A DNA stretch of 64,000 nt, from NCBI GenBank assembly GCA_964536865.1, contig CAZHYN010000006.1, forward strand, positions 6,674-70,673. Reading direction: 5' to 3'. Numbering within the stretch: position 1 is the stretch's first letter; each line of letters starts with the position of its first letter. Source of the stretch: an uncultured Planctomycetia bacterium. Lineage in GTDB: Bacteria > Omnitrophota > Gorgyraeia > Duberdicusellales > 4484-171. The position numbers were made by a program, and so were the translations under genes. Positions 6,778 to 58,401 of this stretch are shown piece by piece. Below the pieces are notes generated by a model. It ran no database searches, had not been told where the DNA came from, and saw nothing but the letters and a program-made list of their open reading frames with translations.

Positions 6778-6789
6778 AAAGGATTTTTT

Positions 6790-8052: not shown

Positions 8053-8092
8053 TATTGATAACTATAAGAATCTAAGGTATAATTCCTTTTCT

Positions 8093-8371: not shown

Positions 8372-8372
8372 G

Positions 8373-8723: not shown

Positions 8724-9660
8724 GCTTTTGAGGGAGAATAAAAGATTTTTAATTACTGCCCATATGAATCTGGAGGGAGATGCCTTAGGTTCAGAGTTAG
8801 CTACCTATCTTCTTCTTAGAAAGATGAATAAGCAGGCTATTATCTACAACCACGATTCCACCCCCCAGGCTTATAGTTTTCTTCCTCATGTTAAAGTTAT
8901 AAAAAATGAACTGGATTCTTCCTATGCGTTTGATGTAGCTTTGGTTTTAGATTGTTCTGATTCTTTTCGTACAGGGAAAGTAAAAGATTATTTAAGTAGG
9001 GCAAAGATTATTGTTAATATCGATCATCATATAAGTAATACTTTTTTTGGAGACATAAATTGGGTGGACCCCAAGGCAAGCTCTGCCTCGGAGATGATTT
9101 ACCGATTATGTAGGGAGTTAAAAGTGATGAATAGAAAAATAGCCCTGTGCATCTATACGGGGATATTTACAGATACAGGTAGTTTCACCTATAGTAATGT
9201 TTCTTCACGGGTTCATAGGATCACTGCTGAATTATTTAGATACAAGATCTTACCCGATAAAATTTACGATTCCTTACATAGTTTTTGTCAGCTTAACGAT
9301 ATAAAGTTTATTGGCAAAATATTGTCTTCTATTAAAGCAGATCCTAGTGGAAAGATAATTTGGTCATTAATAAGGTACTGGCCAAAGAAGGATTACGATC
9401 TTACAGAAGTGATTTTCTCAATAATGCGGTTCTTAAGAGATGCCGAGGTTTTTTTATTGTTTAAAAAGTTAGGGAAAAATAAGGTTCGTGTAAACTTTCG
9501 CTCACGTTCTAAAGTAGATGTGAATAAAGTTGCTAAGTTTTTTGGAGGAGGAGGGCATAAACGAGCTAGTGGCACCACTATGTCTGGAAATCTCTCCTCG
9601 GTAGAAAAGAAGGTTATAACTTTCATTAGAAGATATACCAATGATAAGAAAAGGAAATAG
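8704..9660 (+). CDS. nrnA: DHH/DHHA1 phosphoesterase (NrnA-like oligoribonuclease/pAp phosphatase)
   Basis: DHH motif (NIDHH) and DHHA1 motif (GGGGHKRASG). Confidence 0.75.
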   Translation: MIKKIIELLRENKRFLITAHMNLEGDALGSELATYLLLRKMNKQAIIYNHDSTPQAYSFLPHVKVIKNELDSSYAFDVALVLDCSDSFRTGKVKDYLSRAKIIVNIDHHISNTFFGDINWVDPKASSASEMIYRLCRELKVMNRKIALCIYTGIFTDTGSFTYSNVSSRVHRITAELFRYKILPDKIYDSLHSFCQLNDIKFIGKILSSIKADPSGKIIWSLIRYWPKKDYDLTEVIFSIMRFLRDAEVFLLFKKLGKNKVRVNFRSRSKVDVNKVAKFFGGGGHKRASGTTMSGNLSSVEKKVITFIRRYTNDKKRK

Positions 9661-10324
9661 GGATGGTTTGATCTTAGTGAATAAGCCTCCTGGATTAACT
9701 AGTCACGATGTAGTTAACTATGTGCGTAAAAAACTTAACATTAGGAGGGTAGGACATGCTGGTACCTTAGATCCTCAGGCAGAGGGTTTGCTTGTTATTC
9801 TTGTAGGAAGATATACAAAATTTTTCTCCAGGTTTGTAGATTTTGATAAAGAGTATGAGGGGATTATGAAATTAGGAGAGACAACTACTACTGGGGATGC
9901 TCAAGGTGAGGTTGTAAAGAGAAGAAGTATAGAGAATTTAAATGAATCAGAAGTTAGAGATGTCTTTTCCTCTTTTGTAGGAGAGATTGAACAAATTCCT
10001 CCTATGGTTAGTGCTATAAGGGTAGAAGGGAAAAGATTATATAAACTAGCCCGCAGAGGTATAGTGGTAAAGAGACTCCCTCGAAAGGTAAAGATTTATG
10101 ATTTAAGGATTTTAAAAATTAAGTTTCCCTTTGTGGAGTTCTATGTAAGGTGTTCTAAAGGAACTTACATAAGGAAGTTAGCTGAGGATATAGGAGAAAG
10201 GTTAGGATGTGGGGCGCACATAACTTCTATTGTGAGAACATCAGTAGGTCCCTTTAGTTTGAAAGAAGCGGTAAATTTAGAAGATATCAATGTTGCCCAT
10301 TTAGGGGAGTATACCTTTGAATGA
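9641..10324 (+). CDS. truB: tRNA pseudouridine(55) synthase
   Basis: GHAGTLDP catalytic Asp motif. Confidence 0.85.
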   Translation: MIRKGNRDGLILVNKPPGLTSHDVVNYVRKKLNIRRVGHAGTLDPQAEGLLVILVGRYTKFFSRFVDFDKEYEGIMKLGETTTTGDAQGEVVKRRSIENLNESEVRDVFSSFVGEIEQIPPMVSAIRVEGKRLYKLARRGIVVKRLPRKVKIYDLRILKIKFPFVEFYVRCSKGTYIRKLAEDIGERLGCGAHITSIVRTSVGPFSLKEAVNLEDINVAHLGEYTFE

Positions 10325-11232
10325 TAACTCTTCGTTTTCCTCTTTTAAAACGAATAGAATGTGTTGCTACCGTTGGAGTATTCGATGGTCTTCATCTCGG
10401 CCACTTATTCCTTATTAGAAAATTAAAAAAAATAGCAAAAAGAAAAAAATTACCCTCATTGGTAGTTACCTTTTGGCCCCCTCCTCAGCGAGTTCTTTCT
10501 TCTTCCTTTTTGGGTTTTCTTACTAACTTGGAAGAAAAGAAGCAGATTTTAGCAAGAGAGGGAATTGATTACTTATTACTTTTTCATACTACGTCTGATT
10601 TATTGCATTTGAGAGGTGAAGAGTTTTTAGAGAAACTTATCTCATCTATAAAAGTAAACACTTTAGTAGTAGGTGAAGATTTTAGATTTGGATATAGGAG
10701 AGAAATCGGTGTTAAAAAATTGAAAAAGTTTTCAGGAGAAATGGGATTTGATGTAATAGTTTTGAAGAAAAAAAAATTAGGAAAGAGAATAATTAGTAGT
10801 TCTTATATAAGAAGACTGATAAAGAAAGCCTCCTTTCCTCAAGCTGAAAGATTACTCGCCAGGCCATATATCATAGAAGGCAAGATAGTTAAAGGCAAGG
10901 GATTAGGTTCTACAATAGGTTACCCTACTTTAAATGTAGATTGGCAAAATAAAATGATACCTAAACGGGGAGTGTATGTGGTTAAGGTATTTTTGAGAAG
11001 AAGGTGGCGCTTGGCTCTCTGTAATATAGGTTTTGCTCCTACCGTCTCAAGAGATAAAAAGATGAGTATGGAAATTTATATTTTACATCTCAAGAAGAAA
11101 ATCAGACCCAAGAAAGCCAAGATTATCTTTTTGAAAAGAATCCGTAGAGAAAGGAAATTTCCTTCTTTGGAAAAGTTGAAGGAGAGAATAGGTAAAGATA
11201 TAAGAGCTGTCCTTTCAAAATATAGTGGTTAA
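10321..11232 (+). CDS. ribF: Bifunctional riboflavin kinase / FMN adenylyltransferase
   Basis: N-terminal nucleotidyltransferase motif (GVFDGLHLGH) and a C-terminal riboflavin kinase domain. Confidence 0.85.
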   Translation: MITLRFPLLKRIECVATVGVFDGLHLGHLFLIRKLKKIAKRKKLPSLVVTFWPPPQRVLSSSFLGFLTNLEEKKQILAREGIDYLLLFHTTSDLLHLRGEEFLEKLISSIKVNTLVVGEDFRFGYRREIGVKKLKKFSGEMGFDVIVLKKKKLGKRIISSSYIRRLIKKASFPQAERLLARPYIIEGKIVKGKGLGSTIGYPTLNVDWQNKMIPKRGVYVVKVFLRRRWRLALCNIGFAPTVSRDKKMSMEIYILHLKKKIRPKKAKIIFLKRIRRERKFPSLEKLKERIGKDIRAVLSKYSG

Positions 11233-11287
11233 ATCGCTCCTCCCCCCCAATCTTTAGTGTTTCTCATAATAAATCAATTAAAATTTC

Positions 11288-11316
11288 TTGACAAATGTAG
11301 TTTGGTAAATTATATT
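11288..11316 (+). promoter_or_regulatory. Sigma70-like promoter of the dcw operon (TTGACA-17-TATATT)
   Basis: TTGACA at 11288-11293 and TATATT at 11311-11316, with a 17-nt spacer, just upstream of mraZ. Confidence 0.55.
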
Positions 11317-11322
11317 TATATT

Positions 11323-11350
11323 GTGGAATAAAGTGGAGTAAAGTGGAATG
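11323..11350 (+). promoter_or_regulatory. Putative MraZ operator: three direct GTGGA repeats with 10-bp periodicity
   Basis: GTGGAATAAA GTGGAGTAAA GTGGAATGTGG sits immediately upstream of and overlapping the mraZ start. It resembles MraZ-box direct repeats (GTGG with a 10-nt period). Confidence 0.5.
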
Positions 11351-11779
11351 TGGTATGGCAAATATTTTCATACCTTAGATTCTAAAGATAGATTTATCCT
11401 TCCTGCAAAGTTCCGAGAAAAAATGAAAAAGATGAAAAGCAAAGTCTTTTATCTTACCTGCGGCTTAGATGGATGTTTATTTTTATTTTCTCATGACACC
11501 TGGAGAAAGATGGAAGAAAAGTTGAAATCCCTATCATTTACTAAACAACAGTCTCGATATTTTAATCGATTATATTTTAGTGGGGCACAAGAGGTAGAAG
11601 TTGATTCTCAAGGGAGAATCACTATTCCCTCCTATCTTAAAGAGTTTGCAGAAATCAAAAGAGAGATAATAATTTTAGGGGTTGCCGATAGAATTGAAAT
11701 TTGGGATAGAGAAAAATGGGAGAAGTTTTATGTTGACAATAGAAAGAGATTCGAAGAAATGGCAGAAGGTCTCTTTTAA
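11348..11779 (+). CDS. mraZ: Transcriptional regulator MraZ
   Basis: Duplicated DXXXR-type MraZ fold and first position in the dcw cluster. Confidence 0.85.
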   Translation: MWYGKYFHTLDSKDRFILPAKFREKMKKMKSKVFYLTCGLDGCLFLFSHDTWRKMEEKLKSLSFTKQQSRYFNRLYFSGAQEVEVDSQGRITIPSYLKEFAEIKREIIILGVADRIEIWDREKWEKFYVDNRKRFEEMAEGLF

Positions 11780-27264: not shown

Positions 27265-28275
27265 ATGAAGGTAAGTAAGATTCGGTTAAGGAAAGTCTTT
27301 AGAAAGTGGAAAAGTAAAAGAATTCTTGTGATAGGTGACCTTATCTTAGACCATTATATTTTTGGTCAAGCAGAGAGAATTTCTCCTGAGGCTCCTGTTC
27401 CAGTAATCCGTGTTAGCCAAGAGAAATTTTTAGGAGGAGGTGCGGTAAATGTAGCATTTAATTTAATGGATTTAGGAGCCAGGGTAACTCTCTGTGGAAT
27501 AGTGGGCAAAGATTATTTTGGCAATACCCTCCTGTCTCTCCTTAAAAAGAGGAGGATGGATACCAGTTTAATTTTTACAGATAAATACAGACCTACAACT
27601 TTGAAAGCAAGAATTATAGCTCAACATCAACAGGTAGTAAGAGTGGATTGGGAGACTAAAGAGTCTCTTCATTTAGAGCTTACCGGTAGAGTTTTAAAGA
27701 AAATAAAAAAAATAGTGGATATGGTGGAGGGGATAATAATAGAAGATTACGGTAAAGGCATGATAAATTCCTATCTGGTAGAAAATTTAGTTAAGTTGTG
27801 TAAGAGGAGAAAGAAGGTAATTACAGTGGATCCTAAGGAAGAACACTTTAGCTACTATGAAGATGTAACTGCCTTAACTCCTAATTTAAAAGAGGCAGAG
27901 ATAGCCGCTAATATGCGCCTTAAATCTAAGGAAGAGATAAATCTCTTAGGAAGATTAATTTTAGATGAGCTAAGGCCACAAGCTCTCCTTATCACTTTAG
28001 GAGAAGAAGGGATGAGGTTGTTTTTAAAAGAAGGAGGAGTTTATCATATCCCCACCTATGCTTTGGAGGTTTATGATGTTACAGGAGCAGGGGATACAGT
28101 GATAGCAGTTTTTACTTTAGCACTTCTTGGGGGAGCCTCTTTTTTGGAAGCAAGTATAATTTCTAATCTTGCTGCAGGAGTGGTAGTAGGAAAGTTAGGA
28201 GCTTCTACCACTAGCTGTTCAGAACTTATTAGAAAAATGAATAATACAGATATCAAAATTTATAAGATAAAGTGA
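27265..28275 (+). CDS. PfkB-family sugar kinase, RfaE domain I / HldE kinase-like (heptose-7-P kinase)
   Basis: Ribokinase-like fold with the TGAGDTV anion-hole motif. The HldE adenylyltransferase half is not fused. Confidence 0.65.
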   Translation: MKVSKIRLRKVFRKWKSKRILVIGDLILDHYIFGQAERISPEAPVPVIRVSQEKFLGGGAVNVAFNLMDLGARVTLCGIVGKDYFGNTLLSLLKKRRMDTSLIFTDKYRPTTLKARIIAQHQQVVRVDWETKESLHLELTGRVLKKIKKIVDMVEGIIIEDYGKGMINSYLVENLVKLCKRRKKVITVDPKEEHFSYYEDVTALTPNLKEAEIAANMRLKSKEEINLLGRLILDELRPQALLITLGEEGMRLFLKEGGVYHIPTYALEVYDVTGAGDTVIAVFTLALLGGASFLEASIISNLAAGVVVGKLGASTTSCSELIRKMNNTDIKIYKIK

Positions 28276-28278
28276 TAT

Positions 28279-29019
28279 ATGGAGGTAATTGGGGTAATTC
28301 CTGCAAGACACTATTCTCGGAGATTGCCAGGAAAGTTATTGAAACTACTTTTGGGTAAACCTTTGTTGCAGTGGACATGGGAAAGTGCTAAAAAATCTTC
28401 TAGTTTAGATAGACTTATCATTGCCTGTGATAGTGAAGAAATAAAAAATGTTGCTCAAGGTTTTGGCGCTGAAGTTGTACTTACTTCTGAGAAACATACC
28501 TCGGGCACAGATAGAATAGCTGAAGCAGTGAGAGATATTGACGTGAATTTTGTAATAAATATCCAAGCAGATGAACCTTTAATTCATTACTCAGCTATAG
28601 ATACCTTGGTAGAGGAGTTAAAAAATAACCCTAAACTAGTAATGGTCACTCTAAAGAAAGAAATTAGCGAGGGGGGAGAAGTTAATAATCCAAATGTAGT
28701 TAAAGTAGTTACAGATAGAGAGGGTTTCGCTCTTTATTTCTCCCGATTTCCTATTCCTTATAGAAGAGATAGTGAAGTAACTCCTACCTACTATAAACAT
28801 ATTGGGATTTATGGTTACGCTAAAGATTTCTTATACATTTTTAAAAATCTTCCTCCCTCTTCTTTAGAGAATGCAGAAAAGTTAGAGCAGTTAAGAGCGT
28901 TAGAAGCAGGGTATAGAATTAAGGTAGTCACTACTCAATTTGATTCGTGGGGGGTAGATACTGAGGAAGATTTTAAAAAGGTAGAGTGGATACTTACTCA
29001 GAGAGGTTACCGCCCATAA
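28279..29019 (+). CDS. kdsB: 3-deoxy-manno-octulosonate cytidylyltransferase (CMP-Kdo synthetase)
   Basis: VIPARHYSRRLPGK N-terminal motif. Confidence 0.85.
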   Translation: MEVIGVIPARHYSRRLPGKLLKLLLGKPLLQWTWESAKKSSSLDRLIIACDSEEIKNVAQGFGAEVVLTSEKHTSGTDRIAEAVRDIDVNFVINIQADEPLIHYSAIDTLVEELKNNPKLVMVTLKKEISEGGEVNNPNVVKVVTDREGFALYFSRFPIPYRRDSEVTPTYYKHIGIYGYAKDFLYIFKNLPPSSLENAEKLEQLRALEAGYRIKVVTTQFDSWGVDTEEDFKKVEWILTQRGYRP

Positions 29020-29031
29020 ATAAACCTTGAG

Positions 29032-29814
29032 ATGAAAAAGTTTATTCTTATCGCAGGGCCTTGTGTAATAGAGAATAAAAGTATTACTTTAGAAATAGCT
29101 AGTTACCTTAAAGAAGTTACTTCTAAGTACCCTTTGAGTTTCATTTTTAAGGCAAGCTTTGATAAAGCAAATCGTACTTCTCTCAAATCTTATCGAGGTC
29201 CTGGTCTTAAGAAGGGAATTAAGATTTTAGAAGAGGTAAAAAAGAGATTTTCTGTTTCTATTTTGAGTGATGTTCATTGTCGGTATCAGGTAAGAGAGGT
29301 AAAGGATGTTTTAGATGTAATTCAGATACCTGCTTATCTTTCTCGCCAGACAGACTTAATTTTAGAAGTAGCAAAGGCAAAAAAGAGAGTAAATGTCAAG
29401 AAAGCGCAATTTATGTCTCCATATGATATCAAATATGTTATAGAGAAGATTACCTCTGTGGGTAATAATAAAATTTTCCTCACCGAAAGAGGAAGTTGTT
29501 TTGGTTACAATAATTTAGTGGTTGATTTCCGTTCTCTTCTTATTATGAAGGAATTTGGTTACCCTGTAATTTTTGACGCTACCCATTCTTTGCAGAGACC
29601 TTCTGCCAAGAGAGGAATTTCGGGAGGCGATAGAAAATTTGTTTTACCTATGAGTTTAGCTGCTATTGCCTGTGGGTGTGATGGTCTTTTCTTAGAAGTT
29701 CATCCTCATCCCCAGCGTGCTCTCTCAGATAGATATACTTCTTTTCCTTTAAATCGTATTGAGGATCTTATAAAAAAAGTTTTAGAAGTTAGGAGGGTAA
29801 TAGGTGAGAAGTAA
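29032..29814 (+). CDS. kdsA: 2-dehydro-3-deoxyphosphooctonate aldolase (Kdo-8-P synthase)
   Basis: DAHP-synthase-like TIM barrel (LIAGPCVIE...). Confidence 0.85.
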   Translation: MKKFILIAGPCVIENKSITLEIASYLKEVTSKYPLSFIFKASFDKANRTSLKSYRGPGLKKGIKILEEVKKRFSVSILSDVHCRYQVREVKDVLDVIQIPAYLSRQTDLILEVAKAKKRVNVKKAQFMSPYDIKYVIEKITSVGNNKIFLTERGSCFGYNNLVVDFRSLLIMKEFGYPVIFDATHSLQRPSAKRGISGGDRKFVLPMSLAAIACGCDGLFLEVHPHPQRALSDRYTSFPLNRIEDLIKKVLEVRRVIGEK

Positions 29815-30784
29815 GAAAGATAAAAGTATTCTAAAGTGGGCAGAAGAAGTTCTTTCTATAGAGGGAAAAGCTCTGTACTCCTTAAAGAAATCATTAAGTA
29901 GAAGGTTTATTAAGGCTGTAGAATTGGTTTCTAAGTGTTCAGGAAGGGTGGTAGTTACAGGTATGGGCAAAGCAGGTATTATTGGTCAGAAATTCTCGGC
30001 TACTTTAGCAAGTTTTGGGTTCTCTTCTTTCTGGCTTCATCCTGCAGAAGCAGTTCATGGAGATTTAGGAAGGATAAGGGAAGACGATGTAGTGGTGGTA
30101 CTTTCCTATAGTGGAGAAACAGAAGAGATAAAAAACTTAATACCTTTTGTTAAAAAAATTGGAGCAAGAGTGGTAGCTATTACAGGAAATGAAAGATCTA
30201 GTTTAGCAAAATATTCCGATGCTCTCATAAATACAAAAGTAGAGAAGGAAGCCTGCCCCTTAGGATTAGCTCCTACTACCTCTACCACAGCGATGCTAGC
30301 TATTTGTGATGCTATTGCTGTAGTGCTACAGAAGTTGAAAGGATTGAAAGAAAAAGATTTTGCTTTCTTTCATCCTCAAGGTTCACTGGGTAGGAAACTC
30401 CTTCTTAAGGTGAGAGATATTATGAGGAAAGGTAAATTTAATCCTATAGTTAAAGAAGATGCTTTAATAAAAGAGGTGTTAATAAAAATAACTTCTTCTC
30501 ATGCAGGAGCAGCTTCAGTGGTAAATAAAGATAAGAAGTTAGTGGGGATATTTACTGATGGTGATTTAAGGAGACACTTAGAAAGAGATCCTTATATTTT
30601 AGAGAGAAGAGTTAAAGAAGTTATGACTAAAAATCCTGTAGTAGTGAAAGATGATGATTTAGCCAGTAGTGCATTAAAGGTTTTAGAATCAAAAAAGATA
30701 GATGAGGTTCCTGTTGTTGATAGCCAAGGTCGATGTGTAGGAATGCTTGATGTTCAGGATTTAATATCTGCAGGATTAATTTGA
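29804..30784 (+). CDS. kdsD: Arabinose-5-phosphate isomerase (SIS + tandem CBS)
   Basis: SIS domain (VVVTGMGKAG) followed by two CBS domains. Confidence 0.85.
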   Translation: MRSKKDKSILKWAEEVLSIEGKALYSLKKSLSRRFIKAVELVSKCSGRVVVTGMGKAGIIGQKFSATLASFGFSSFWLHPAEAVHGDLGRIREDDVVVVLSYSGETEEIKNLIPFVKKIGARVVAITGNERSSLAKYSDALINTKVEKEACPLGLAPTTSTTAMLAICDAIAVVLQKLKGLKEKDFAFFHPQGSLGRKLLLKVRDIMRKGKFNPIVKEDALIKEVLIKITSSHAGAASVVNKDKKLVGIFTDGDLRRHLERDPYILERRVKEVMTKNPVVVKDDDLASSALKVLESKKIDEVPVVDSQGRCVGMLDVQDLISAGLI

Positions 30785-31320
30785 TGAGTAAAATATTAGA
30801 AAGATTTAAAAGAGTTAAACTTCTTGTTTTGGATGTCGACGGGGTCCTAACAAAAGGAGAGATAATCTATGACAATCAAGATAAAGAGTTGAAGATTTTT
30901 AATGTTAAGGATGGTTTGTCCGTTTTTTTGTTAAATAAAGTAGGTATAAACACGATTTTTCTTACTGCTAAAAATAGTAAAGTGGTAAGAAAGAGAGCTA
31001 AAGATATGGGAGTAAGAGAAGTAATAGGAGGAATCCTTCCTAAGAGTAAAGCCATAGAGAAAATCAAGAAAAAGTATAAGCTTAAAAAGGATGAAATATG
31101 CTTTATAGGCGATGATTTAATAGACATGAGTGCGATGAAAAGAGTGGGATTACCTATAGCAGTAAGAGACGCCCCTGGAGAGGTAAAAAGGTGTGCTTTG
31201 TACGTAACTAAAAATAGAGGAGGAGAGGGAGCGGTAAGAGAAGTAGTGGAGTGCATCCTTAAGGCGAAGAACCTTTGGAAGAAGATAGTAGGAGAAATAG
31301 ATAGTCTTATAGATAGATAA
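30781..31320 (+). CDS. kdsC: Kdo-8-phosphate phosphatase (HAD)
   Basis: HAD motif I (LVLDVDGVLT) and KdsC-like size. Confidence 0.8.
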   Translation: MMSKILERFKRVKLLVLDVDGVLTKGEIIYDNQDKELKIFNVKDGLSVFLLNKVGINTIFLTAKNSKVVRKRAKDMGVREVIGGILPKSKAIEKIKKKYKLKKDEICFIGDDLIDMSAMKRVGLPIAVRDAPGEVKRCALYVTKNRGGEGAVREVVECILKAKNLWKKIVGEIDSLIDR

Positions 31321-33897: not shown

Positions 33898-34140
33898 AAT
33901 ACTAAATTAAATTTAACCACTTCTTGTGGGAGTCCTCGCAAGCCATTTTATAAAGAGAGTAGAAATATTTTTGGATAATCAAGAGGAGCTTATAGTGTAT
34001 AAGTTTTTCTTTTAATGAGGAGATTGTAAAAAATTACAGGAGGCTTTTTAGAAAAAGAGTTTATCCTTTGGAAATTGTCTTCTCAAGAACATCCTGTCAG
34101 CTCTAAATAATTATGCACCTTTTATTAAATTACAAAATTC

Positions 34141-34168
34141 TTGCCTAAATATTTTTCTATGTTATAAT
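34141..34168 (+). promoter_or_regulatory. Sigma70-like promoter upstream of the tRNA-Phe locus (TTGCCT-16-TATAAT)
   Basis: TTGCCT at 34141-34146 and TATAAT at 34163-34168, about 20 nt upstream of the first tRNA-Phe 5'-half copy. Confidence 0.45.
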
Positions 34169-34188
34169 TTTCTAACAATTTAGTAAGT

Positions 34189-34222
34189 GCCGAGGTAGCT
34201 CAGGAGGTAGAGCGAGGGACTG
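34189..34222 (+). pseudogene. Orphan 5' half of tRNA-Phe (positions 1-34, identity stops inside the anticodon loop), followed by a three-hairpin structured segment
   Basis: 34187-34222 is identical to the 5' 36 nt (including the 2 upstream nt) of the complete tRNA-Phe gene 135 bp downstream. It diverges sharply after G34. 34226-34275 forms nested hairpins: gtgat[ctccgac-gtta-gtcggag][ttgccc-gaa-gggcaa]atcac. Confidence 0.7.
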
Positions 34223-34323
34223 TATGTGATCTCCGACGTTAGTCGGAGTTGCCCGAAGGGCAAAATCACATCCAGTTATTACTTTTGCTTAATCGAAAAA
34301 CTTTTGATTAAAAATAAAACTGT

Positions 34324-34396
34324 GCCGAGGTAGCTCAGGAGGTAGAGCGAGGGACTGAAAATCCCTGCGTCGGGGGTTCGACTCCCTCCCTCGGCA
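34324..34396 (+). tRNA. tRNA-Phe (anticodon GAA), CCA not encoded
   Basis: Cloverleaf read by hand: acceptor gccgagg/cctcggc, D-arm gctc/gagc, anticodon stem aggga/tccct with loop ctGAAaa, T-arm ggggg-ttcgact-ccctc, discriminator A. Confidence 0.9.
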
Positions 34397-34505
34397 CTTT
34401 TATCTCTAATTTATAAGTTTATTCTCCTCTCTGTGCGTCTTTAAGTGTTCCTAGGCAATGTCGGATCCAACATATAAATACTTTGGTTTCACCAAAGGTT
34501 GGATA

Positions 34506-34523
34506 CGACTCCCTCCCTCGGCA
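34506..34523 (+). repeat. 18-nt perfect copy of the tRNA-Phe 3' end (T-loop C56 to discriminator), preceded by a hairpin
   Basis: cgactccctccctcggca is identical to 34379-34396. The hairpin tccaac...ctttggt-ttc-accaaag...gttgga abuts it upstream. Confidence 0.85.
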
Positions 34524-34630
34524 TAGTTTATCCTCACATTCATTAACTTCTTTTTTAAGCTGGAAGTTAGCTCTGAGACGAAAGTATCGTCGGAACAAAT
34601 AAGGGAAAATCGCCTTTGGCGAATTTGTTA

Positions 34631-34648
34631 CGACTCCCTCCCTCGGCA
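34631..34648 (+). repeat. Second 18-nt perfect copy of the tRNA-Phe 3' end, preceded by hairpins
   Basis: cgactccctccctcggca(c) is identical to the tRNA 3' end. The upstream spacer carries hairpins gacga-aagta-tcgtc and tcgcc-tttg-ggcga. It lies 125 bp from the previous copy. Confidence 0.85.
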
Positions 34649-34725
34649 CTTTTTGTTTTTAAAGTCAGAATTGGAGATATTTTATTTCTGAAGTTACTTC
34701 CTACTTTATTATCTTATTAGTGTTC

Positions 34726-35109
34726 CTATTTTGATAGAAAAGATATGATTTTAGGGAAAAAGAGGATTAAGCCAATAATTATTGCTCCTAAAGAGGAGAG
34801 GAGAACTGCTGCGGATGATATATCTTTAAGGAGCTTTATTTTAGGATCATTTTGAGGCTGGATCATATTAAGAATATACTCCACAAGAGTATTAAAAACT
34901 TCACATACGAAAACACCAACAGTAACAATTATCAATATAACAAGTTCATCTGGAGAGAGTTTAAAAATGATACCGAACACAATTACTATCAAGCCAATGA
35001 GGAATATAAGACGCGCATTTCTTTCCGTTGCAAGTACAACTTTTAATCCTTTTAAAGCTCCCAAAAGACTTTCTCTTATGTTTCTATGTTTCCAAATTTT
35101 ATTAGCCAT
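34726..35109 (-). CDS. dgkA: Diacylglycerol kinase (prokaryotic DgkA family)
   Basis: A roughly 120-aa three-TM protein with a DgkA-like conserved core. Confidence 0.7.
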   Translation of the reverse strand: MANKIWKHRNIRESLLGALKGLKVVLATERNARLIFLIGLIVIVFGIIFKLSPDELVILIIVTVGVFVCEVFNTLVEYILNMIQPQNDPKIKLLKDISSAAVLLSSLGAIIIGLILFFPKIISFLSK

Positions 35110-35138
35110 TAATTTTCTTTGCTATTCTTTATGCAATA

Positions 35139-38100
35139 TCAAAATGGTAAACCAAATCCTCCATGGAGACGTGAGCGAGTAGTATCTTTATCTGCTCCTA
35201 TCTTAAATCCATAGTCTAATTTTACAAATCCCCATTTTGTTCTAAATCGCAATCCTATCCCACCTCCGCTTTTAAATTTATTCAAAGAAAAATCATTCGC
35301 TTCCTCTATTAGAAATCCTGTATCCAAAAATGCAGCTCCATAGAGTAGATTCTTATACAAAGGAAATCTAAATTCTATATTGATTACACCAAAAAAATTC
35401 CCTCCTAACGGAAGAAGATTGTTATCTAGCATTCCTACTTTTCTTCCTTTGTACCCTCTTATAGTAGAAGAACCTCCTATATAAAACTTTTCAAAAAAAG
35501 GAACTTCATTAGTTCCCCCAAAAGCATCTAAATATCCCCATTTAGTTCTGAGTACAAACACTCTATCTTTTTTAAGATTATAATAACGGCGGTAATCTAA
35601 TTGAATTCTATAGAAATCAAAATCTGAACCAATAATTTGAGAAGAGATGTCTTGTTGAATTTTAAAGTAGGTTCCACTGGTAGGATAAATTTTATCATTA
35701 GTAGTTTTTCTTAGAAATTTTATGAATAAGAAATCTACTTTAGGTTTTCCATAATAACTTTTAATTTTGACAGGTGCAGAAGGGTCTAAATCATAAATAC
35801 TATACTTATAGGAGGAAAATCCTAAATAGATTTTACTATTTTGTGTAAAATATGTTCCCAGATAGAGATCGTACATAAGTTTCCCTTTCAAATTATATCT
35901 TGAATCTGATTCCCATCGTCCCTTAAATGAGAGGCCACCAAAGAATATACTGTTCAATATTTCATCCTTTTCAAAGCCTAATTTTAACTTCTTTTCATAA
36001 GAGGAGTATTTACCTCCAAAAATACCCTTAAAGTTCTTATGTTCATACTTTAGGTGTGCTTTTTCTCCAGTAGGTGCGGATATTTTTAGTTCTCCTATTC
36101 TTTGGATTTTCTTTTCCTCTTTTAAAGTAAGATTAAGAAATTCTAAAATTTTATTTTCGACGTATCCAAAAGATAAGTAAGAACTGAAGTGCCCCTCCGG
36201 AAGCCAAATAATGCGGGGATATTCCAGAGAACGCCATAGACTCACGCTACACTCAGAGGGCATGTCCTTGTCAAATAGAGCATTTATCATAAGGATAGTT
36301 TTGTTTTTGGCTTTAAAAGAAAAATTTAAAGGATCGATAATATTTACCTCTTCTAGGATTTTCTGTATCTGTTTTTCTTTAAGTTTTAATCTATATTTTT
36401 TAAGTAATCTACTCTTTAGTATAAACTTTTCGAAATCTGCACCCCCAAGGAGAAATACACCTCTGTTTATCGTTGCATCTTTGCCTAGAAGAGTTCCTGC
36501 AATGATAGCTCCTAGACTTAATCCTCCCAGAGCTATCCTATCATTATTTATAAAAGATTGTCTCTTCAGCCACTCTAAGGTATTTCCCCCTTCAATAGTT
36601 AGTTCTTTTATTAGATCTGTATAAATTTTTACTCTTTTTTGAAGGGATATATTCCTTAGTCTATCTTTATGTTGATGGTAAAATTTTTTTGCACCTAGTT
36701 CTAAAGTTACAAAAGCAAAATTATTCTTCGTTAAGAATTTTCCTAAATTTTCTTCAATGAATTTACTTACCCCTCCAGAGTGAGGGAGGAAAAATAAACA
36801 AGGATATTTTCCCTTCTTATTAGAAAGGAAGAGATAGATAAAAATATATTTGTTAGGTAATTTTAAATCTAATTTGCTTTCATAAACAAAAGTTAATTTT
36901 CTATAGTATTTTTTATTTTCTTCTTTTTCTAAAATAGGAAATATTTCTCTTTCATTTTCTTTCAAAAATCGATAAGGATTTTTAGTAGTTTTTGGAGGCA
37001 ATTTTTTGCCAAATTCTTTTTCTAGGGAAAAATCAATTTCTTTTTCAGAGAGGAGGAAATACAGTCTTAGTTCATCAGGAACGAACAAGACACTTTGTAA
37101 AGTTCCCCCTCCTTTCCCTATAGGTGGTGTTCTTAATAAATTAAATGTACTTTTTAAATCAAACTTTTTATTGCCTCTCGCAGTTTTCTTGAACTGAACC
37201 AATCGCTTATACGAACTAGTTTCTTCTAATTTTGTCTTTGGATACACCGCTTTCATAGTTTGGAATAGTCTTTCTGTGAGATAGTGATTTACAGCAATAA
37301 GATACTTATCTTTTGGAAAAATAATCTCGTACATTCTTGCTGAGACTTCTGCGACAAATGCACTGTTCGTTTTCCCATCAGTTATAGTTATGGTATATCC
37401 CCTCATTCTTTTTGATTTAGATATTTCTCTTAGAGCTTTCCATAGATCAGGAGAATATTGGATAATTTTCCTTAAAAGGAACATAATCGGGATTCCAGTT
37501 TTTGATAAATCTTCAGTTCCCACTCCAGTTTCTCCTAAAGATATTCTATTTGCATTCATACCAGTTAACACTCCACACATTCCTGGCCAGCCAATGTGCA
37601 CAAAAGGAAAGCCATTGTCGGGTTCTACGAAAAAGATTACCCTATTTTTAAATAGATTTTTTCGTGGAGCAAAACCTAGATTTCTTCCATGAAAAAGTTT
37701 GTTACTTTGAGTTAATTCAGGCAAAAGTACGAAATTAGTACATGTTTTTTTAATTTTTCTTAAGAGAGGCATAACATCTAGAAAGGTATGCATCAGAAGA
37801 ATTTTTTGATAAGATAGACCGCTTCCTTTAGCCACTCCTCTCATTTCTTCCCTAAATTCAGAAGGGATATATTTTTCTAATTGTCTCGATTTAAGTTTAA
37901 AGTACTGCAAGATAATCCACCGTTTTAATTTTGAATGAGAAGAACTTTGGAGAAGCTCTTTTAAGAAGTAATTATTATAAAGTTGACGAATTTGGTTTCT
38001 TAAAAGATATCCGTGCTGAAATCCTCTTATAAATGGAGAACCTTTAAGATGAACTACAAGAATTCCATTTGTATTTTTTAAAGACGCTCCTTTTAGATAG

Positions 38101-38177
38101 TTTACTTTAGGTGAAGTGGAAGAAGGAAGGATAAAGAAAATAGTAATAGTAAAAATCGAAACAATAAATTTCTTCAC
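35139..38177 (-). CDS. Secreted multidomain protein: signal peptide - peptidase C45 (acyl-CoA:6-APA acyltransferase-like Ntn hydrolase) - alpha/beta hydrolase - POTRA/Omp85 (D15 surface antigen) beta-barrel
   Basis: N-terminal signal (MKKFIVSIFTITIFFILPSS). The C45 region has a putative nucleophile Cys (KTCTNF) and a GRNLGF motif. The alpha/beta hydrolase region has GLSLG (GxSxG) plus downstream Asp/His. The C-terminal roughly 300 aa is rich in alternating aromatic beta strands and ends in a terminal F, matching a BamA/TpsB-type barrel. Confidence 0.6.
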   Translation of the reverse strand: MKKFIVSIFTITIFFILPSSTSPKVNYLKGASLKNTNGILVVHLKGSPFIRGFQHGYLLRNQIRQLYNNYFLKELLQSSSHSKLKRWIILQYFKLKSRQLEKYIPSEFREEMRGVAKGSGLSYQKILLMHTFLDVMPLLRKIKKTCTNFVLLPELTQSNKLFHGRNLGFAPRKNLFKNRVIFFVEPDNGFPFVHIGWPGMCGVLTGMNANRISLGETGVGTEDLSKTGIPIMFLLRKIIQYSPDLWKALREISKSKRMRGYTITITDGKTNSAFVAEVSARMYEIIFPKDKYLIAVNHYLTERLFQTMKAVYPKTKLEETSSYKRLVQFKKTARGNKKFDLKSTFNLLRTPPIGKGGGTLQSVLFVPDELRLYFLLSEKEIDFSLEKEFGKKLPPKTTKNPYRFLKENEREIFPILEKEENKKYYRKLTFVYESKLDLKLPNKYIFIYLFLSNKKGKYPCLFFLPHSGGVSKFIEENLGKFLTKNNFAFVTLELGAKKFYHQHKDRLRNISLQKRVKIYTDLIKELTIEGGNTLEWLKRQSFINNDRIALGGLSLGAIIAGTLLGKDATINRGVFLLGGADFEKFILKSRLLKKYRLKLKEKQIQKILEEVNIIDPLNFSFKAKNKTILMINALFDKDMPSECSVSLWRSLEYPRIIWLPEGHFSSYLSFGYVENKILEFLNLTLKEEKKIQRIGELKISAPTGEKAHLKYEHKNFKGIFGGKYSSYEKKLKLGFEKDEILNSIFFGGLSFKGRWESDSRYNLKGKLMYDLYLGTYFTQNSKIYLGFSSYKYSIYDLDPSAPVKIKSYYGKPKVDFLFIKFLRKTTNDKIYPTSGTYFKIQQDISSQIIGSDFDFYRIQLDYRRYYNLKKDRVFVLRTKWGYLDAFGGTNEVPFFEKFYIGGSSTIRGYKGRKVGMLDNNLLPLGGNFFGVINIEFRFPLYKNLLYGAAFLDTGFLIEEANDFSLNKFKSGGGIGLRFRTKWGFVKLDYGFKIGADKDTTRSRLHGGFGLPF

Positions 38178-38187
38178 AAAATCTATT

Positions 38188-53494: not shown

Positions 53495-56179
53495 ATGAGA
53501 ATTTTTTGCTTTTTTTTAATTCTTTTGCTTTTATTTGTACCCTTAGGGGCAAAAGCTTCTTTAGGAAGTAAATACTGTGTAGAATTAGGAAGGAATTATT
53601 TAAAGAAAGGAGATATATATCAAGCAGAGATAGAATTTAGAAAAGCCCTTCTTATAAATCCTTCTGAAGAAGAAGCAAAGAAATTTTTAGAAGAGATAAG
53701 AAGAGAAAAGATTAAAAAAACTCTGGATTTTTACTCTAAAGGCAAAGTTTCCCCAAAAGTGGTTTCTCCTCCGCCAAAAGAGAGTTTTTCCCCTGAGCCT
53801 TCTCCTCCTAAGAAAGAGACTAAAAGTGAATGGAAATTAGAGGGAGTATATCAGACAGGATTTGGAATAACTAATGATAGCTTCATCTGGAAAAGGGCTA
53901 ACTGGGATTTGAACGAGGAAGATTGGCGAATTATCTCGAGTAAAGCTTACGATAATAGAGCAAATACTTTCGACCCAGCGATATTTACTCAAGTTAGGTT
54001 TCAATTAGATTCTCCTTCTCTAGAGGGGTGGAAATTCCATACTAATATTGATGTTAGTCCTTGGAGTTTTGTGGGTAAAAGCAACAAAGTTACTATAGAA
54101 GGAATTGATACTGGGACAGGTTTAGTTAGCGATAGAGTAGAGATTCAGTTAAAATACTGGGCAAATACAGGTTATACCGTAAATGAAACTTACTATACTC
54201 TAGAAGATGGAGCGCCTCTAGGATTACCGGAAATAAAAGTTGTGAGAGGGAGAACTCTTCCTATGGAGATTTCTGGTATAGATTGGGGAGGCGATGGCAT
54301 TCCTGACTATACTTATAATCTTCCTGAGTTAGATATTCACCGAAGATTCTGGCCGTTAAGGGAGCTTTGGTTTGATTACAATTCGTATAATTTCAATTTT
54401 CGTCTCTTCCCTGTAGCTTTACAAAACCAGGCTTATACCTCTGACGATATATTAGGACTCTCCAATCATATTATTTGGTGGGAGGAATCTCCTTGGTTAG
54501 ATATTTGGCAACCTGGACATGTAGATACAGGGACAGAACCTTTGGATTTCTTTAAAGGTTACTGGGATGATTCTTTAACTTGGCTTGCTAGAGATTCGCA
54601 AGGAGTTCGTCTTACCAATTTAAGAGGTTTTTCTTTCTCTTGGAACCAAGATAGTACCAGCTGGGATTTTACTTTCGCTTCTCCCAAAACATTATGGCAG
54701 GATTATGATGAGTTTAATACCTATGTAAGTGCTTTGAGAGGTAAGTATTTTCTCAATGATAACTTTTGGATAGGAGGAATTTATACTTGTAAATTAGGTT
54801 ATAATAAGGGTAGTCGAGATGCTACTAACCAGGCTGTAGGAGTAGACCTTACTTATGGAGTTTCCAGTAATACCAAGGTGAGTTTAGAACTAGCTACTTC
54901 AAAATCTGTAAAAGACAAAATCTCTTCTTACAAGAGTGACTATCGAGGTAATGCGGTAAAGTTTAGCATCATTAGTTCGTCTGAAAGTGATATTTTTGAT
55001 ACTGACTATTTTGGGATAAATCCCCCTAAAGATTCTGAAGCTCCCTTCTATAAGTTAAGGATAGAACTTACCCATATGGACGAGGGATTTGAGGCAGGTT
55101 TGTCCAGTTTCAGAGAAACCAGGGATGATATGTTCTGGTCACGACACCTCCATTTTAGAGAACCATTCAGATATTACTATGCTGGGTTATACGAACCTAC
55201 ATTAACTTGGGATGACATAAGACCTTTCAGGATAGGAGATGGTATTGATTACGGAAGGGATGTGATAGGTTTAAGGATAGAAGGAGTTAACTTTCTAAAA
55301 GGAAAATGCGATTGGTTGTTTGATATAAGGAATATTCATTACACTAACGGTAAATATTTAGAAACGGTATCTCGCTTAGAGTCTACCTATAGAGCTACTT
55401 CTAAATTAACGACTAAATTTTTAGGGATATACCATCATAAACCTCATACTGTGGGAGGTATCGATCCTTTTGTTTTTGATGTAGATACTGATATTTTTTA
55501 TCTTAATAGGATTATTGAGGATGGGAAAGACCCATCTTTAAAGACAGTCTCCTTAGGGGCAGAGTATAAACTTTCTCCTGAGATAAAACTCTACGGAATA
55601 TGGGAACACACAAATGATTCTACAGTAGCTTACGATAACTTTCCTAGGTCTATCTTAAGAGATTCTAGTATGACTTCCTACTTAGAAGAGGGAACTCGAT
55701 ATCGAAGAACATCACCTTTTCTTTACAGTCAAGAAAATTTTCCTCAACCCCCTTATCCCTATTTTAATATATTTAAAGCAGGATTAAGTTTTATGGTGAA
55801 TGATAAAACTAGCATAGGACTTGATTGGACACACAATGACTATAAGTATGCTGGTCAGATAGATGATAATATAAACCATATTGGATTTGAATTAGAATAC
55901 CTTCCTTGGGAAAAACTCTCTTTTTACTTCAAGTACGTTTACTCTAAATGGAATGATGTAAACAGACTTATAAGTGGGGAAGCTGAGCTTTGTCGGGGTC
56001 ATCATAATTTCTTTACCGAATTACGGTATAGAGCAACTTCTAATGATGAATTTCTCTTTCAATATGGAGTGACCTCTAGAGGATTAATAGGTGAGTTGAT
56101 TTATGATCCTTATGGAGGAACCTTAGCCGTTTTAGATACCCAGCATATTTTTAGGATGTTCTATCGGAGGAAGTTTTAA
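53495..56179 (+). CDS. Large secreted protein: signal peptide, TPR-like N-terminal segment, Pro/Ser-rich linker, large aromatic-rich C-terminal domain ending in F (probable outer-membrane beta-barrel)
   Basis: Only ORF-level and compositional evidence. The C-terminal ...FYRRKF is consistent with an OMP C-terminal signature. No family recognised. Confidence 0.45.
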   Translation: MRIFCFFLILLLLFVPLGAKASLGSKYCVELGRNYLKKGDIYQAEIEFRKALLINPSEEEAKKFLEEIRREKIKKTLDFYSKGKVSPKVVSPPPKESFSPEPSPPKKETKSEWKLEGVYQTGFGITNDSFIWKRANWDLNEEDWRIISSKAYDNRANTFDPAIFTQVRFQLDSPSLEGWKFHTNIDVSPWSFVGKSNKVTIEGIDTGTGLVSDRVEIQLKYWANTGYTVNETYYTLEDGAPLGLPEIKVVRGRTLPMEISGIDWGGDGIPDYTYNLPELDIHRRFWPLRELWFDYNSYNFNFRLFPVALQNQAYTSDDILGLSNHIIWWEESPWLDIWQPGHVDTGTEPLDFFKGYWDDSLTWLARDSQGVRLTNLRGFSFSWNQDSTSWDFTFASPKTLWQDYDEFNTYVSALRGKYFLNDNFWIGGIYTCKLGYNKGSRDATNQAVGVDLTYGVSSNTKVSLELATSKSVKDKISSYKSDYRGNAVKFSIISSSESDIFDTDYFGINPPKDSEAPFYKLRIELTHMDEGFEAGLSSFRETRDDMFWSRHLHFREPFRYYYAGLYEPTLTWDDIRPFRIGDGIDYGRDVIGLRIEGVNFLKGKCDWLFDIRNIHYTNGKYLETVSRLESTYRATSKLTTKFLGIYHHKPHTVGGIDPFVFDVDTDIFYLNRIIEDGKDPSLKTVSLGAEYKLSPEIKLYGIWEHTNDSTVAYDNFPRSILRDSSMTSYLEEGTRYRRTSPFLYSQENFPQPPYPYFNIFKAGLSFMVNDKTSIGLDWTHNDYKYAGQIDDNINHIGFELEYLPWEKLSFYFKYVYSKWNDVNRLISGEAELCRGHHNFFTELRYRATSNDEFLFQYGVTSRGLIGELIYDPYGGTLAVLDTQHIFRMFYRRKF

Positions 56180-57201: not shown

Positions 57202-58401
57202 ATGGGGGCAAAGAATATACCCTTGATAATTCTCCTTGTTTTGTTATTGGTAAGTGGTTTTATTGCTATGAAATTTTATTCAGAAGCACAGAGGCTTTCT
57301 GAGAAGAATAGAAGTTTAGAGGAAGATATTGCTAAGTTAGTGCAGGAGAGGGAAAGTCTTTTAGATGAAAATGCTCGACTTGATAAGCGAACTAGAGAAT
57401 TAGAGAGTAGATGGCGTGATATTCAGGAGGAGCTTTTCAGGGTAGAGAGGGAAAAAGAGTCTTTGAGAAATAAGTATGAGCTGATAAGAAAAGAAAAGGA
57501 GGTTTTAAAGAAAAAATTAGAACAGTTATCTCGAAGAGAGGTATACCCAAAAGAGAGAGTTCAACAACCACCTCAGTCTCAGTACTGGGAAGATGTGGTA
57601 AGAGAGAAGGCAGAACTTCAGGCTAAGTTAGAAAAGTTAAATAAAGAGCTTCTTGGAACTAAGGCAAGGATAAATGAATTAGAGAATGAAAATAAAGAGT
57701 TAAGTATCAAAATAGATCAACTTTCCCAAGATAAGGAACGGTTAGAGAATGAGGTAGCTTTTAAAGAAAGAACTATCCAACTTATGAGTAAAGATTTAGT
57801 GAATGAAAGAGAAACACGTCACGCTGTCTCTAAGGAATTAGCTAAGTTACGAGAAGAGAATATGGATCTTAAACAAGAGATAATTTTAGTTAGAAAAGAA
57901 CAACTTCAGGTTCAAAACAAACTTAAAGAAACTATGGAGGAAAAAGTAAAACTAGAAGAAAAGGTGTCTCAGATAGAAAAAATTCTAAAAGAGAAATCCC
58001 TAGTTTTTGAGCAATTAAAGGAGGAGTTAATTAAGGCTTTAAAAGGAGTTAGAGAAGGAGAGTCTGTAATCCAGCTTCCTCCTATTGTAGTAAAGCCTCA
58101 TGAAGAAGGTGTTTCTAAGGGAGAAGTTTCTCAGACTACGAAGACTTCTACTATCTCTGGTGTAACGGTTCCTCTTAGGGGATCTATTCTCACCGTGAAT
58201 GAGAAAGAGCGGTTTGTAGTAATTGATCTAGGACAAAGTTCAGGGGTAAGAGTAGGAAGTAAATTTGATGTATTTAGGGGTGAATCTCTGATAGGTAATA
58301 TAGAAGTTGTAGAAACAAGAGAGGAGATTTCTGCCGCCGATATTAAAAATGTAGTTAAAGGATATTCTATCAAAGAGGGCGATTTAGTAGTTTCTAAATA
58401 A
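57202..58401 (+). CDS. Membrane-anchored long coiled-coil protein with a small C-terminal beta-rich domain
   Basis: N-terminal TM helix, then roughly 250 aa of heptad-rich E/K/L sequence, then a C-terminal region VVIDLGQSSGVRVGSKFDVF...GDLVV. Confidence 0.4.
   Translation: MGAKNIPLIILLVLLLVSGFIAMKFYSEAQRLSEKNRSLEEDIAKLVQERESLLDENARLDKRTRELESRWRDIQEELFRVEREKESLRNKYELIRKEKEVLKKKLEQLSRREVYPKERVQQPPQSQYWEDVVREKAELQAKLEKLNKELLGTKARINELENENKELSIKIDQLSQDKERLENEVAFKERTIQLMSKDLVNERETRHAVSKELAKLREENMDLKQEIILVRKEQLQVQNKLKETMEEKVKLEEKVSQIEKILKEKSLVFEQLKEELIKALKGVREGESVIQLPPIVVKPHEEGVSKGEVSQTTKTSTISGVTVPLRGSILTVNEKERFVVIDLGQSSGVRVGSKFDVFRGESLIGNIEVVETREEISAADIKNVVKGYSIKEGDLVVSK

Follow-up and report, generated by a model that had tools for sequence, protein, structure and literature searches.

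Omp85 proteins are known from textbooks as machines that insert or translocate other proteins. PagL, LpxR and OMPLA, enzymes embedded in the outer membrane that deacylate lipid A or phospholipids, do not belong to this superfamily, and in these enzymes the barrel itself bears the active site. Here we analyze a gene of an uncultured bacterium of the phylum Omnitrophota, located in a 64,000-nucleotide stretch of contig CAZHYN010000006.1 (hereafter the window), whose product joins a C45-family N-terminal nucleophile (Ntn) hydrolase domain and an alpha/beta-hydrolase domain to an Omp85-type barrel and has no sequence relationship to PagL, LpxR or OMPLA, which would be functional analogues of it.

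The Omp85/TpsB proteins have been divided into ten subfamilies, namely BamA, TamA, BamA-like, Lipo, Patatin, WD40, Metallo, noNterm, FhaC and Hmw1B, in none of which a C45 or alpha/beta-hydrolase cargo is described (PMC4104836). Three features define type Vd proteins: the barrel has 16 strands, there is a single POTRA domain, and the passenger is a patatin with a Ser-Asp dyad (PMC6555100). The view of PlpD, originally the case in point for 'type Vd secretion', changed in 2024, when it was recast as an enzyme of lipid homeostasis in the periplasm: experiments placed its patatin domain in the periplasm and implicated it in outer-membrane lipid homeostasis, its deletion alters phospholipid levels, and exporting a folded domain was considered unfavourable in energetic terms (PMC11116518). 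POTRA-less barrels are known from the Metallo and noNterm groups, the former with an enzyme fused directly to the barrel (PMC4104836, PMC11358297), and noNterm paralogues are present in Leptospira (PMC11358297).

The protein described here resembles each of these in part. As in PlpD and FplA, an N-terminal enzyme of lipolytic type is fused to a C-terminal Omp85 barrel, with a likely role at or under the outer membrane, and the revised model of PlpD, a periplasmic enzyme domain acting on outer-membrane phospholipids (PMC11116518), offers the nearest functional parallel. However, the fusion protein has neither the POTRA nor the patatin domain with its Ser-Asp dyad (there is no match to patatin, PF01734); instead, it contains two catalytic domains, a Cys-Ntn domain of the C45 family and an alpha/beta-hydrolase with a Ser-Asp-His triad, and its connection to the barrel is much shorter than that of PlpD. 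With the Metallo and noNterm proteins it shares a barrel without POTRA, but unlike the noNterm proteins it bears cargo. The original prediction, made from this DNA alone, had proposed a type Vd-like architecture with non-patatin cargo on a POTRA/Omp85 barrel; the cargo indeed falls outside the published classification (PMC4104836). In the literature we found no description of an Omp85 fusion to a hydrolase, an esterase or a C45 domain, and nothing relevant on the function of bacterial C45 proteins.

Domain organization of the fusion protein

The gene is present at the originally predicted position and length. An open reading frame (ORF) of 1012 codons would be expected to arise by chance at 32% GC with a probability of ~1e-35. 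The features of the gene and its product are listed below, in the order of the protein (aa, amino acids; AF2, AlphaFold2; HMM, hidden Markov model; IAT, isopenicillin-N acyltransferase; pLDDT, predicted local distance difference test).

35139..38177, minus strand: complete gene for the C45, alpha/beta-hydrolase and Omp85-barrel fusion protein, 1012 aa, GTG start, TAA stop
38112..38177, minus strand: Sec-type signal peptide, aa 1-22 (MKK, 14 hydrophobic residues and PSSTS, read from the sequence)
37002..38096, minus strand: peptidase-C45 / Ntn-hydrolase domain, aa 28-392 (HMM, Foldseek, profile)
37740..37742, minus strand: Cys146, predicted N-terminal nucleophile (alignment to IAT Cys103)
37671..37691, minus strand: HGRNLGF, aa 163-169 (Arg165 kept, Gly168 at the position of IAT Asp121)
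36120..36941, minus strand: alpha/beta-hydrolase domain, carboxylesterase-like, aa 413-686 (AF2 order of strands and helices, profile)
36516..36518, minus strand: Ser554, predicted nucleophile in GLSLG (aa 552-556), invariant
36270-36272, minus strand: Asp636, predicted triad acid, invariant
36189-36191, minus strand: His663, predicted triad base, invariant
36093..36119, minus strand: disordered linker, aa 687-695, extending to aa 706 should the weak first strand be spurious (pLDDT <50)
35142..36092, minus strand: Omp85-type beta-barrel, aa 696-1012 (PF01103, AF2, Foldseek), with the beta-signal HGGFGLPF
35451..35462, minus strand: IRGY motif of extracellular loop 6 (L6), aa 906-909 (R907, G908 and Y909 invariant)
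35316-35330, minus strand: FLDTG (FxDxG), aa 950-954 (F950, D952 and G954 invariant)

The GTG start is supported by the full-length homologues, which share the start position and have an equivalent basic and hydrophobic N-terminus. The N-terminal sequence of the fusion protein, MKKFIVSIFTITIFFILPSSTS, is a typical Sec signal, as had been predicted, and on reading of the sequence the signal peptide contains no lipobox cysteine. The motifs KTCTNF (aa 144-149), HGRNLGF (163-169), GLSLG (552-556) and the C-terminal HGGFGLPF were all located in the translation. Among nine full-length homologues, the mean pairwise identity is 0.53-0.57 for the C45 domain, 0.44 for the alpha/beta-hydrolase and 0.55 for the barrel, compared with 0.31-0.33 for the linkers; purifying selection acts on each of the three domains. 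Profile matches, folds and conservation agree that the predicted order, a C45 Ntn domain followed by a serine alpha/beta-hydrolase and an Omp85 barrel, is largely right. Two ORFs lie antisense to the gene (36211-36624, plus strand, 137 aa, and 37390-37692, plus strand, 100 aa) and, being located within the conserved coding region, are most likely spurious. We do not use as evidence a TTGAAA-17-TAAAAT site immediately 5' of the GTG or the terminator-like hairpins that are also present; promoter-like sites occurred at the background level in our scan (20 compared with 18 expected).

The N-terminal domain matches the NCBIfam profile NF040521 (C45 family autoproteolytic acyltransferase/hydrolase) with 175.4 bits over aa 45-372 (cut-off 85) and the Pfam profile AAT, PF03417, with 37.1 bits (cut-off 23.2). 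The full-length AF2 model was built from an alignment of 9 sequences (pLDDT 70.5; predicted template modelling score, pTM, 0.63); in it, the C45 and hydrolase domains are confident, with pLDDT ~80-95 across most of aa 30-390, and the C45 domain adopts a predicted Ntn alpha-beta-beta-alpha fold, in which a helical alpha part (aa 28-145) is followed by a beta part that begins at Cys146. A Foldseek search of the PDB identified IAT as the best match (2x1d, E-value 6e-13, target-normalized template modelling (TM) score 0.75), followed by acid ceramidase and NAAA, and a profile of bacterial C45 relatives retrieved the same three enzymes (2e-23, 9e-13 and 2e-10, respectively). By score, fold and nucleophile, the fusion protein is a member of the C45 family, so that on this point the original prediction holds in both profile search and structure prediction.

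The nucleophile proposed there, the Cys of KTCTNF, aligns with the nucleophile Cys103 of the Penicillium IAT (KT/CT compared with DG/CT). This position is occupied by Cys in 73 of the 78 relatives that consist of a C45 domain only and in 40 of the 43 that combine C45 and alpha/beta-hydrolase domains, and a flexible loop with low pLDDT (aa 136-142) lies just ahead of it in the model; an autoproteolytic site is predicted between Thr145 and Cys146. None of the nine full-length homologues deviates at Cys146, Thr147, Asn148, His163, Arg165, Asn208 or Glu216, and the C45 domain, the most conserved part of the fusion protein, is not decaying. The predicted GRNLGF motif is present as well, but as a degenerate version of the family's G-R-N-L-D in which the conserved Asp has been lost. 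At the position of IAT Asp121, Asp is found in ~85% of the relatives without a barrel (68/78 C45-only and 36/43 C45 plus alpha/beta-hydrolase proteins) compared with none of the 16 barrel-fused sequences, 15 of which have Gly or Ser and one a gap. The RxxD motif to which this Asp belongs is also a feature of acid ceramidase and NAAA. The C45 catalytic machinery is non-canonical, with one defining catalytic residue missing. In sum, the domain resembles IAT, acid ceramidase and NAAA, which cleave or transfer acyl-amide bonds after self-cleavage, in its Ntn fold, in the Cys nucleophile that follows a helical alpha segment and in the retained Arg and Asn positions, and differs from them in having Gly for the conserved Asp and in being fused to other domains and a membrane barrel.

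The identification of the second domain as an alpha/beta-hydrolase with GLSLG, also part of the original prediction, is borne out by the order of its elements in the AF2 model, by matches to esterases in profile search and by an invariant triad, although the single sequence remains below the Pfam thresholds. Some homologues of this domain exceed the cut-offs of DLH, Peptidase_S9 or AXE1, and the family profile, when compared with the PDB, retrieves carboxylesterases, lipases, acetyl-xylan esterases and cutinases (best 2e-16). In the AF2 model, Ser554, Asp636 and His663 follow the strands 543-553, 627-632 and 656-658 in the canonical order; the three residues do not vary within the family, are conserved to 93% or more in each architecture class, and make up the predicted catalytic triad.

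The C-terminal part matches Pfam Omp85 (PF01103) with 133 bits (cut-off 24) over aa 721-1010, which covers model positions 12-323 of 325. A separate AF2 model of aa 690-1012, built from 22 sequences, has a pLDDT of 85.2 and a pTM of 0.82, and Foldseek superimposes it on the barrels of BamA and TamA with query-normalized TM scores of 0.71-0.78 (root mean square deviation of 3.1 over 308 columns for TamA, 4c00). IRGY and FLDTG are the lid-lock motifs of Omp85 proteins, defined as (V/I/L)RG(Y/F/W) in L6 and FxDxG (PMC11358297), and the terminal Phe is likewise invariant. The barrel thus places the fusion protein firmly in the Omp85 superfamily, and the C-terminal barrel with a terminal aromatic residue stands as predicted.

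These features bear on the reading that the barrel is still a BamA/TamA-like insertase or translocase, with the enzyme domains accessory or partly inactive and the C45 domain serving as a pseudo-enzyme, a binding or scaffold module that replaces POTRA. The hallmarks of functional Omp85 insertases (IRGY, FxDxG and the beta-signal) are all kept, BamA-like proteins are among the nearest barrels outside the family, and the RxxD Asp of the C45 domain is lost in the barrel-fused members. However, the scores fall far below the NCBIfam equivalog cut-offs for BamA, TamA and TamL (TIGR03303, 112.9 compared with 297; NF047950, 80.5 compared with 625; NF052279, 62.7 compared with 400), which rules out identity with any of these; the strict conservation of Cys146, Arg165, Asn208 and the Ser-Asp-His triad is unexpected for pseudo-enzymes; and the gene is dispensable, being missing in close relatives. 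We therefore consider this reading very unlikely.

The one component of the predicted architecture that had to be abandoned is the POTRA domain. No POTRA profile (PF07244, PF08478, PF08479) matches the fusion protein, whereas PF07244 finds 2-6 POTRAs in the next-nearest barrels. In the AF2 model, the final hydrolase helix runs to aa 686 and the barrel strands start at aa 696-707, so that the linker, the least conserved segment of the protein, comprises ~9-20 residues and leaves no room for a POTRA, which needs ~75. A POTRA at the junction of hydrolase and barrel is thereby ruled out. Since two of the three defining features of type Vd proteins, the POTRA and the patatin passenger (PMC6555100), fail, the protein should not be filed under this type.

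Relatives and a possible origin

In 5.8 billion protein clusters at 90% identity, we identified nine full-length homologues (37-100% identity), all of them metagenomic. Among 1.84 billion representatives of clusters at 50% identity, the three-domain architecture is found in two clusters and in one more with a divergent C45 domain, and a limited two-pattern scan of 185,579 species genomes yielded a single close locus, a metagenome-assembled genome with an ORF of 992 aa. The architecture is thus very rare in the sequence collections searched. The relatives with a source name, few in number, all belong to Omnitrophota; they include OQX87058.1, a partial 'hypothetical protein', and proteins of ~640 aa that consist of an alpha/beta-hydrolase and an Omp85 barrel (MCM8766396.1, HPN65979.1), annotated as 'BamA/TamA family outer membrane protein' or 'dienelactone hydrolase'. 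The latter share with the fusion protein the homologous esterase domain, the linker and the barrel, and differ in the absence of the C45 domain. The phylogenetic survey for the same fusion that the original prediction had called for thus points to this phylum.

By contrast with the three-domain architecture, the barrel-less didomain of C45 and alpha/beta-hydrolase is common, with 43 examples among the fetched sequences, ~30 of which represent distinct 50% clusters within the first 150 profile matches. In these proteins, the two domains, their order and their catalytic residues are those of the fusion protein, but the barrel is absent and the RxxD Asp is retained; signal-peptide-like N-termini occur in 26 of the 30 examined, and a few that bear lipoboxes are apparently lipoproteins, so the didomain would be an extracytoplasmic, membrane-proximal module. 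In five clusters of ~1100-aa proteins, the didomain match occupies the C-terminal ~700 residues, and the N-terminal part of the two that were scanned with Pfam (P0019 and P0051) is a neutral-ceramidase domain (PF04734, 102-107 bits); a third (P0070) is listed with PF04734 in precomputed family hits. The barrels most similar to that of the fusion protein outside the family are stand-alone proteins of the noNterm type with a signal peptide and a barrel only, followed by POTRA-bearing BamA-like proteins. Given that the didomain is widespread and that the nearest outside barrels stand alone, the fusion protein looks like an exported didomain of C45 and esterase that was joined to a POTRA-less noNterm-type Omp85 barrel.

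Proposed orientation and function

We propose that the fusion protein is an N-acyl amidase combined with an O-acyl esterase that is anchored in the outer membrane, faces the periplasm and acts on envelope lipids, a reading to which we assign a probability of about one half. Under this model, the precursor would be exported via Sec and its barrel then inserted in a BAM-dependent manner. Self-cleavage of the C45 domain between Thr145 and Cys146 would expose Cys146, with the alpha fragment staying associated, as it does in IAT, acid ceramidase and NAAA. Both catalytic domains would lie at the barrel's periplasmic mouth, right under the outer membrane's inner leaflet, where the C45 domain would remove or transfer amide-linked acyl chains of envelope lipids and the serine hydrolase the ester-linked ones. 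Candidate substrates that contain both types of bond include lipid A, ornithine and other amino-acid lipids, N-acyl-phosphatidylethanolamine and lipoprotein N-termini. A coenzyme A-dependent transfer of the IAT kind seems unlikely because there is no acyl-CoA in the periplasm. The barrel itself would serve as a membrane anchor, possibly as a membrane-perturbing scaffold, rather than as a secretion pore.

The activity is suggested by the C45-fold relatives, which cleave acyl-amides (in two cases in lipids), by the esterase-like partner and by the fusion to ceramidase. The periplasmic orientation is suggested by the absence of POTRA, the very short linker, the retained lid-lock and the periplasmic location of the enzyme domain of PlpD (PMC11116518): both ends of an Omp85 barrel lie on the periplasmic side, the linker would not reach across the lumen, and L6 presumably caps the barrel. 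The original prediction had placed the enzymes at the cell surface, acting there on acylated substrates. Substrates of the lipid type are plausible in view of the matches to ceramidase and NAAA and of the ceramidase fusion, but the surface location does not agree with the features just listed.

The same evidence bears on the reading of the protein as a type Vd-like autotransporter, the barrel of which would export both hydrolases to the surface, to be displayed or released, where their targets would be acylated substrates outside the cell, for example, the membranes of prey or hosts, acyl-homoserine lactones or beta-lactam-like compounds, in keeping with the predatory or epibiotic lifestyle proposed for Omnitrophota. 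An N-terminal enzyme on a C-terminal Omp85 barrel of the 16-strand type is the arrangement of PlpD and FplA as originally understood (PMC6555100, PMC4104836), Omnitrophota are discussed as predatory in a preprint (bioRxiv 10.1101/2023.11.21.568195), and the gene is a strain-variable accessory one, as is often the case for offensive factors. Yet the linker, for which no helix is predicted, is marginal at best, or too short, for the barrel lumen, the lid-lock that is kept is that of closed BamA/TamA-type barrels, and the would-be cargo amounts to ~660 residues in two globular alpha/beta domains without a beta-helix. Together with the absence of the defining POTRA and with the reassignment of the PlpD passenger to the periplasm, this makes export to the surface quite unlikely in our estimate. 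A bolder alternative in the same vein would have the protein act as a surface weapon of putative predators that dismantles prey membranes.

Several observations weigh against the periplasmic lipid-hydrolase reading. Its substrate, the topology and the self-cleavage of the fusion protein are all features that we infer. The RxxD Asp of the C45 domain is lost, with no acidic substitute nearby (N166, G168), so that processing or activity of this domain may be altered, or another residue, for example, the invariant Glu216, may be used. The barrel that structure prediction returned has 15 confident strands, five of these after L6 as in BamA, and the candidate for the sixteenth (ELKISA, aa 696-701) is a weak prediction, located in a segment that is conserved in related stand-alone barrels. 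Genomic context provides almost no functional support, since the neighbourhoods of the homologues differ (L001, L003, L004, L015, L016) and the diacylglycerol kinase gene dgkA adjoins the fusion gene only in this strain. The alpha/beta-hydrolase of the fusion protein has no Pfam match above the cut-off (e.g., 14.3 compared with 22.6), and among Pfam families it is weakly similar to the S9 and S15 peptidases, so that a peptide substrate is conceivable.

This last similarity is the starting point for a different assignment, a periplasmic proteolytic or peptide-processing factor in which the C45 domain and an S9/S15-like domain act on proteins or peptides rather than on lipids, with roles in envelope quality control, on peptidoglycan stem peptides or in lipoprotein processing. 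The C45 family is filed among peptidases owing to its autoproteolysis, a gene for protein-L-isoaspartate O-methyltransferase (PCMT), a protein-repair enzyme, adjoins a homologue with the hydrolase-Omp85 architecture at two loci (L016 and L018), and Heinz and Lithgow proposed periplasmic quality control for enzyme-Omp85 fusions, with the Metallo group as the case to compare (PMC4104836). Against this, the top matches of the hydrolase are carboxylesterases, lipases and cutinases, the S9 beta-propeller is absent, the characterised C45-fold relatives that we found (IAT, acid ceramidase and NAAA) all cleave non-peptide acyl-amide bonds, and the fusion of the didomain to ceramidase points to lipids. 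A peptide-directed function accordingly appears quite improbable, and we retain envelope lipids as the favoured substrates.

Genomic context and implications

The neighbourhood of the fusion gene in the window includes the following features.

34698..38183: 3.5-kb strain-specific segment that contains the fusion gene and dgkA only (blastn against L019-L022)
34726..35109, minus strand: dgkA, prokaryotic diacylglycerol kinase, 127 aa (PF01219, 90 bits), 29 bp downstream of the fusion gene
34324-34397: tRNA-Phe, ~300 bp from the 3.5-kb segment
38188-43840: cluster of four radical SAM genes and a glycosyltransferase family 2 (GT2) gene, retained by relatives irrespective of the fusion gene
27265-31320, plus strand: genes for precursors of the lipopolysaccharide (LPS) core, hldE (kinase domain), kdsB, kdsA, kdsD/kpsF and kdsC (above curated cut-offs)

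The presence of hldE and of kdsA, kdsB, kdsC and kdsD implies that the organism makes an LPS with heptose and Kdo, that is, that it is a diderm with lipid A. Housekeeping proteins encoded in the window share 90%-identity clusters with proteins from metagenome-assembled genomes named Candidatus Omnitrophota.

Four related Omnitrophota contigs (L019-L022), with 91-93% nucleotide identity on both flanks, lack the segment and have ~75 bp in its place; they keep the cluster of B12-binding radical SAM, radical SAM, GT2 and spore-photoproduct-lyase-like radical SAM genes, followed directly by the sequence that in the window lies 3' of dgkA. The original prediction had placed the fusion gene beside both neighbours. 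Linkage holds for dgkA to the extent that the two genes travel together in the 3.5-kb segment, whereas the radical SAM/GT2 cluster is unrelated, being kept where the fusion gene is missing. An argument from a conserved operon is accordingly ruled out, the neighbourhoods of the homologues also being unlike one another; the co-inheritance with dgkA is compatible with a lipid-related role, in this strain only. The four radical SAM proteins comprise a B12-binding one (the best match, below threshold, is TIGR04072, 'lipid biosynthesis B12-binding/radical SAM'), two similar to spore photoproduct lyase and one encoded by a divergently transcribed gene.

The ~75-bp replacement in the related contigs includes a terminator-like hairpin, and no direct repeats flank the junctions of the segment. 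In L020 (2285-3069, aligned with window 34035-34697), window positions 34377-34396, which belong to the 3' part of tRNA-Phe, are matched twice, ~106 bp apart, a 20-bp direct repeat that an integration event may have left behind. Beyond the tRNA-Phe region, L019 has a gene for a 1573-aa helicase-like protein (6638-11359; DUF4011, AAA_11, AAA_12 and MTES_1575) where the window and L020 have a PAS-GGDEF-HD gene. This difference suggests a variable hot-spot around tRNA-Phe.

Among the more distant homologues, genes for extracytoplasmic function (ECF) sigma factors are located just downstream of the three-domain protein P0009 (L001, 14579-15196) and of the ceramidase-C45-hydrolase protein P0070 (L015, 11481-12161), possibly a hint at a link to envelope stress or else a coincidence. 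The PCMT gene overlaps the start of the hydrolase-Omp85 gene P0016 by 4 bp (L016, 7210-8004; L018, 366-1160), which suggests that the two are co-translated in that lineage. Elsewhere in the window, two large ORFs on the plus strand (53495-56179, 894 aa, and 57202-58401, 399 aa) have no Pfam match at 1e-5. GC skew follows gene orientation: it is strongly positive (0.13-0.32) over the plus-strand genes and negative only in the minus-strand block at ~34.7-42.7 kb, which is slightly lower in GC (0.31-0.34).

Enzyme-bearing Omp85 proteins are already known; what is undescribed is the cargo of C45 and alpha/beta-hydrolase domains on a barrel without POTRA. One may generalize from it to a POTRA-less Omp85 barrel co-opted in Omnitrophota as the platform of a bifunctional envelope-lipid deacylase that would work from the periplasmic side and, together with PlpD, would represent a general class of 'Omp85-tethered lipid enzymes', separate from the roles in secretion and assembly, a proposal that we regard as tentative and rather unlikely. 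If the favoured function is correct, the fusion protein would be a second, unrelated case of an Omp85 barrel that anchors lipid-active enzymes; this would support the revised view of PlpD, with the independent evidence for Omp85 barrels as anchors of periplasmic lipid enzymes being of interest to outer-membrane biologists, and would widen the functional range of the superfamily. The ceramidase fusions and the similarity to acid ceramidase and NAAA also provide a first functional handle on the exported didomain of C45 and esterase. The fusion gene, finally, points to the remodelling of envelope lipids as a trait that varies among strains of Omnitrophota, a phylum from which hardly any proteins have been characterised by experiment.

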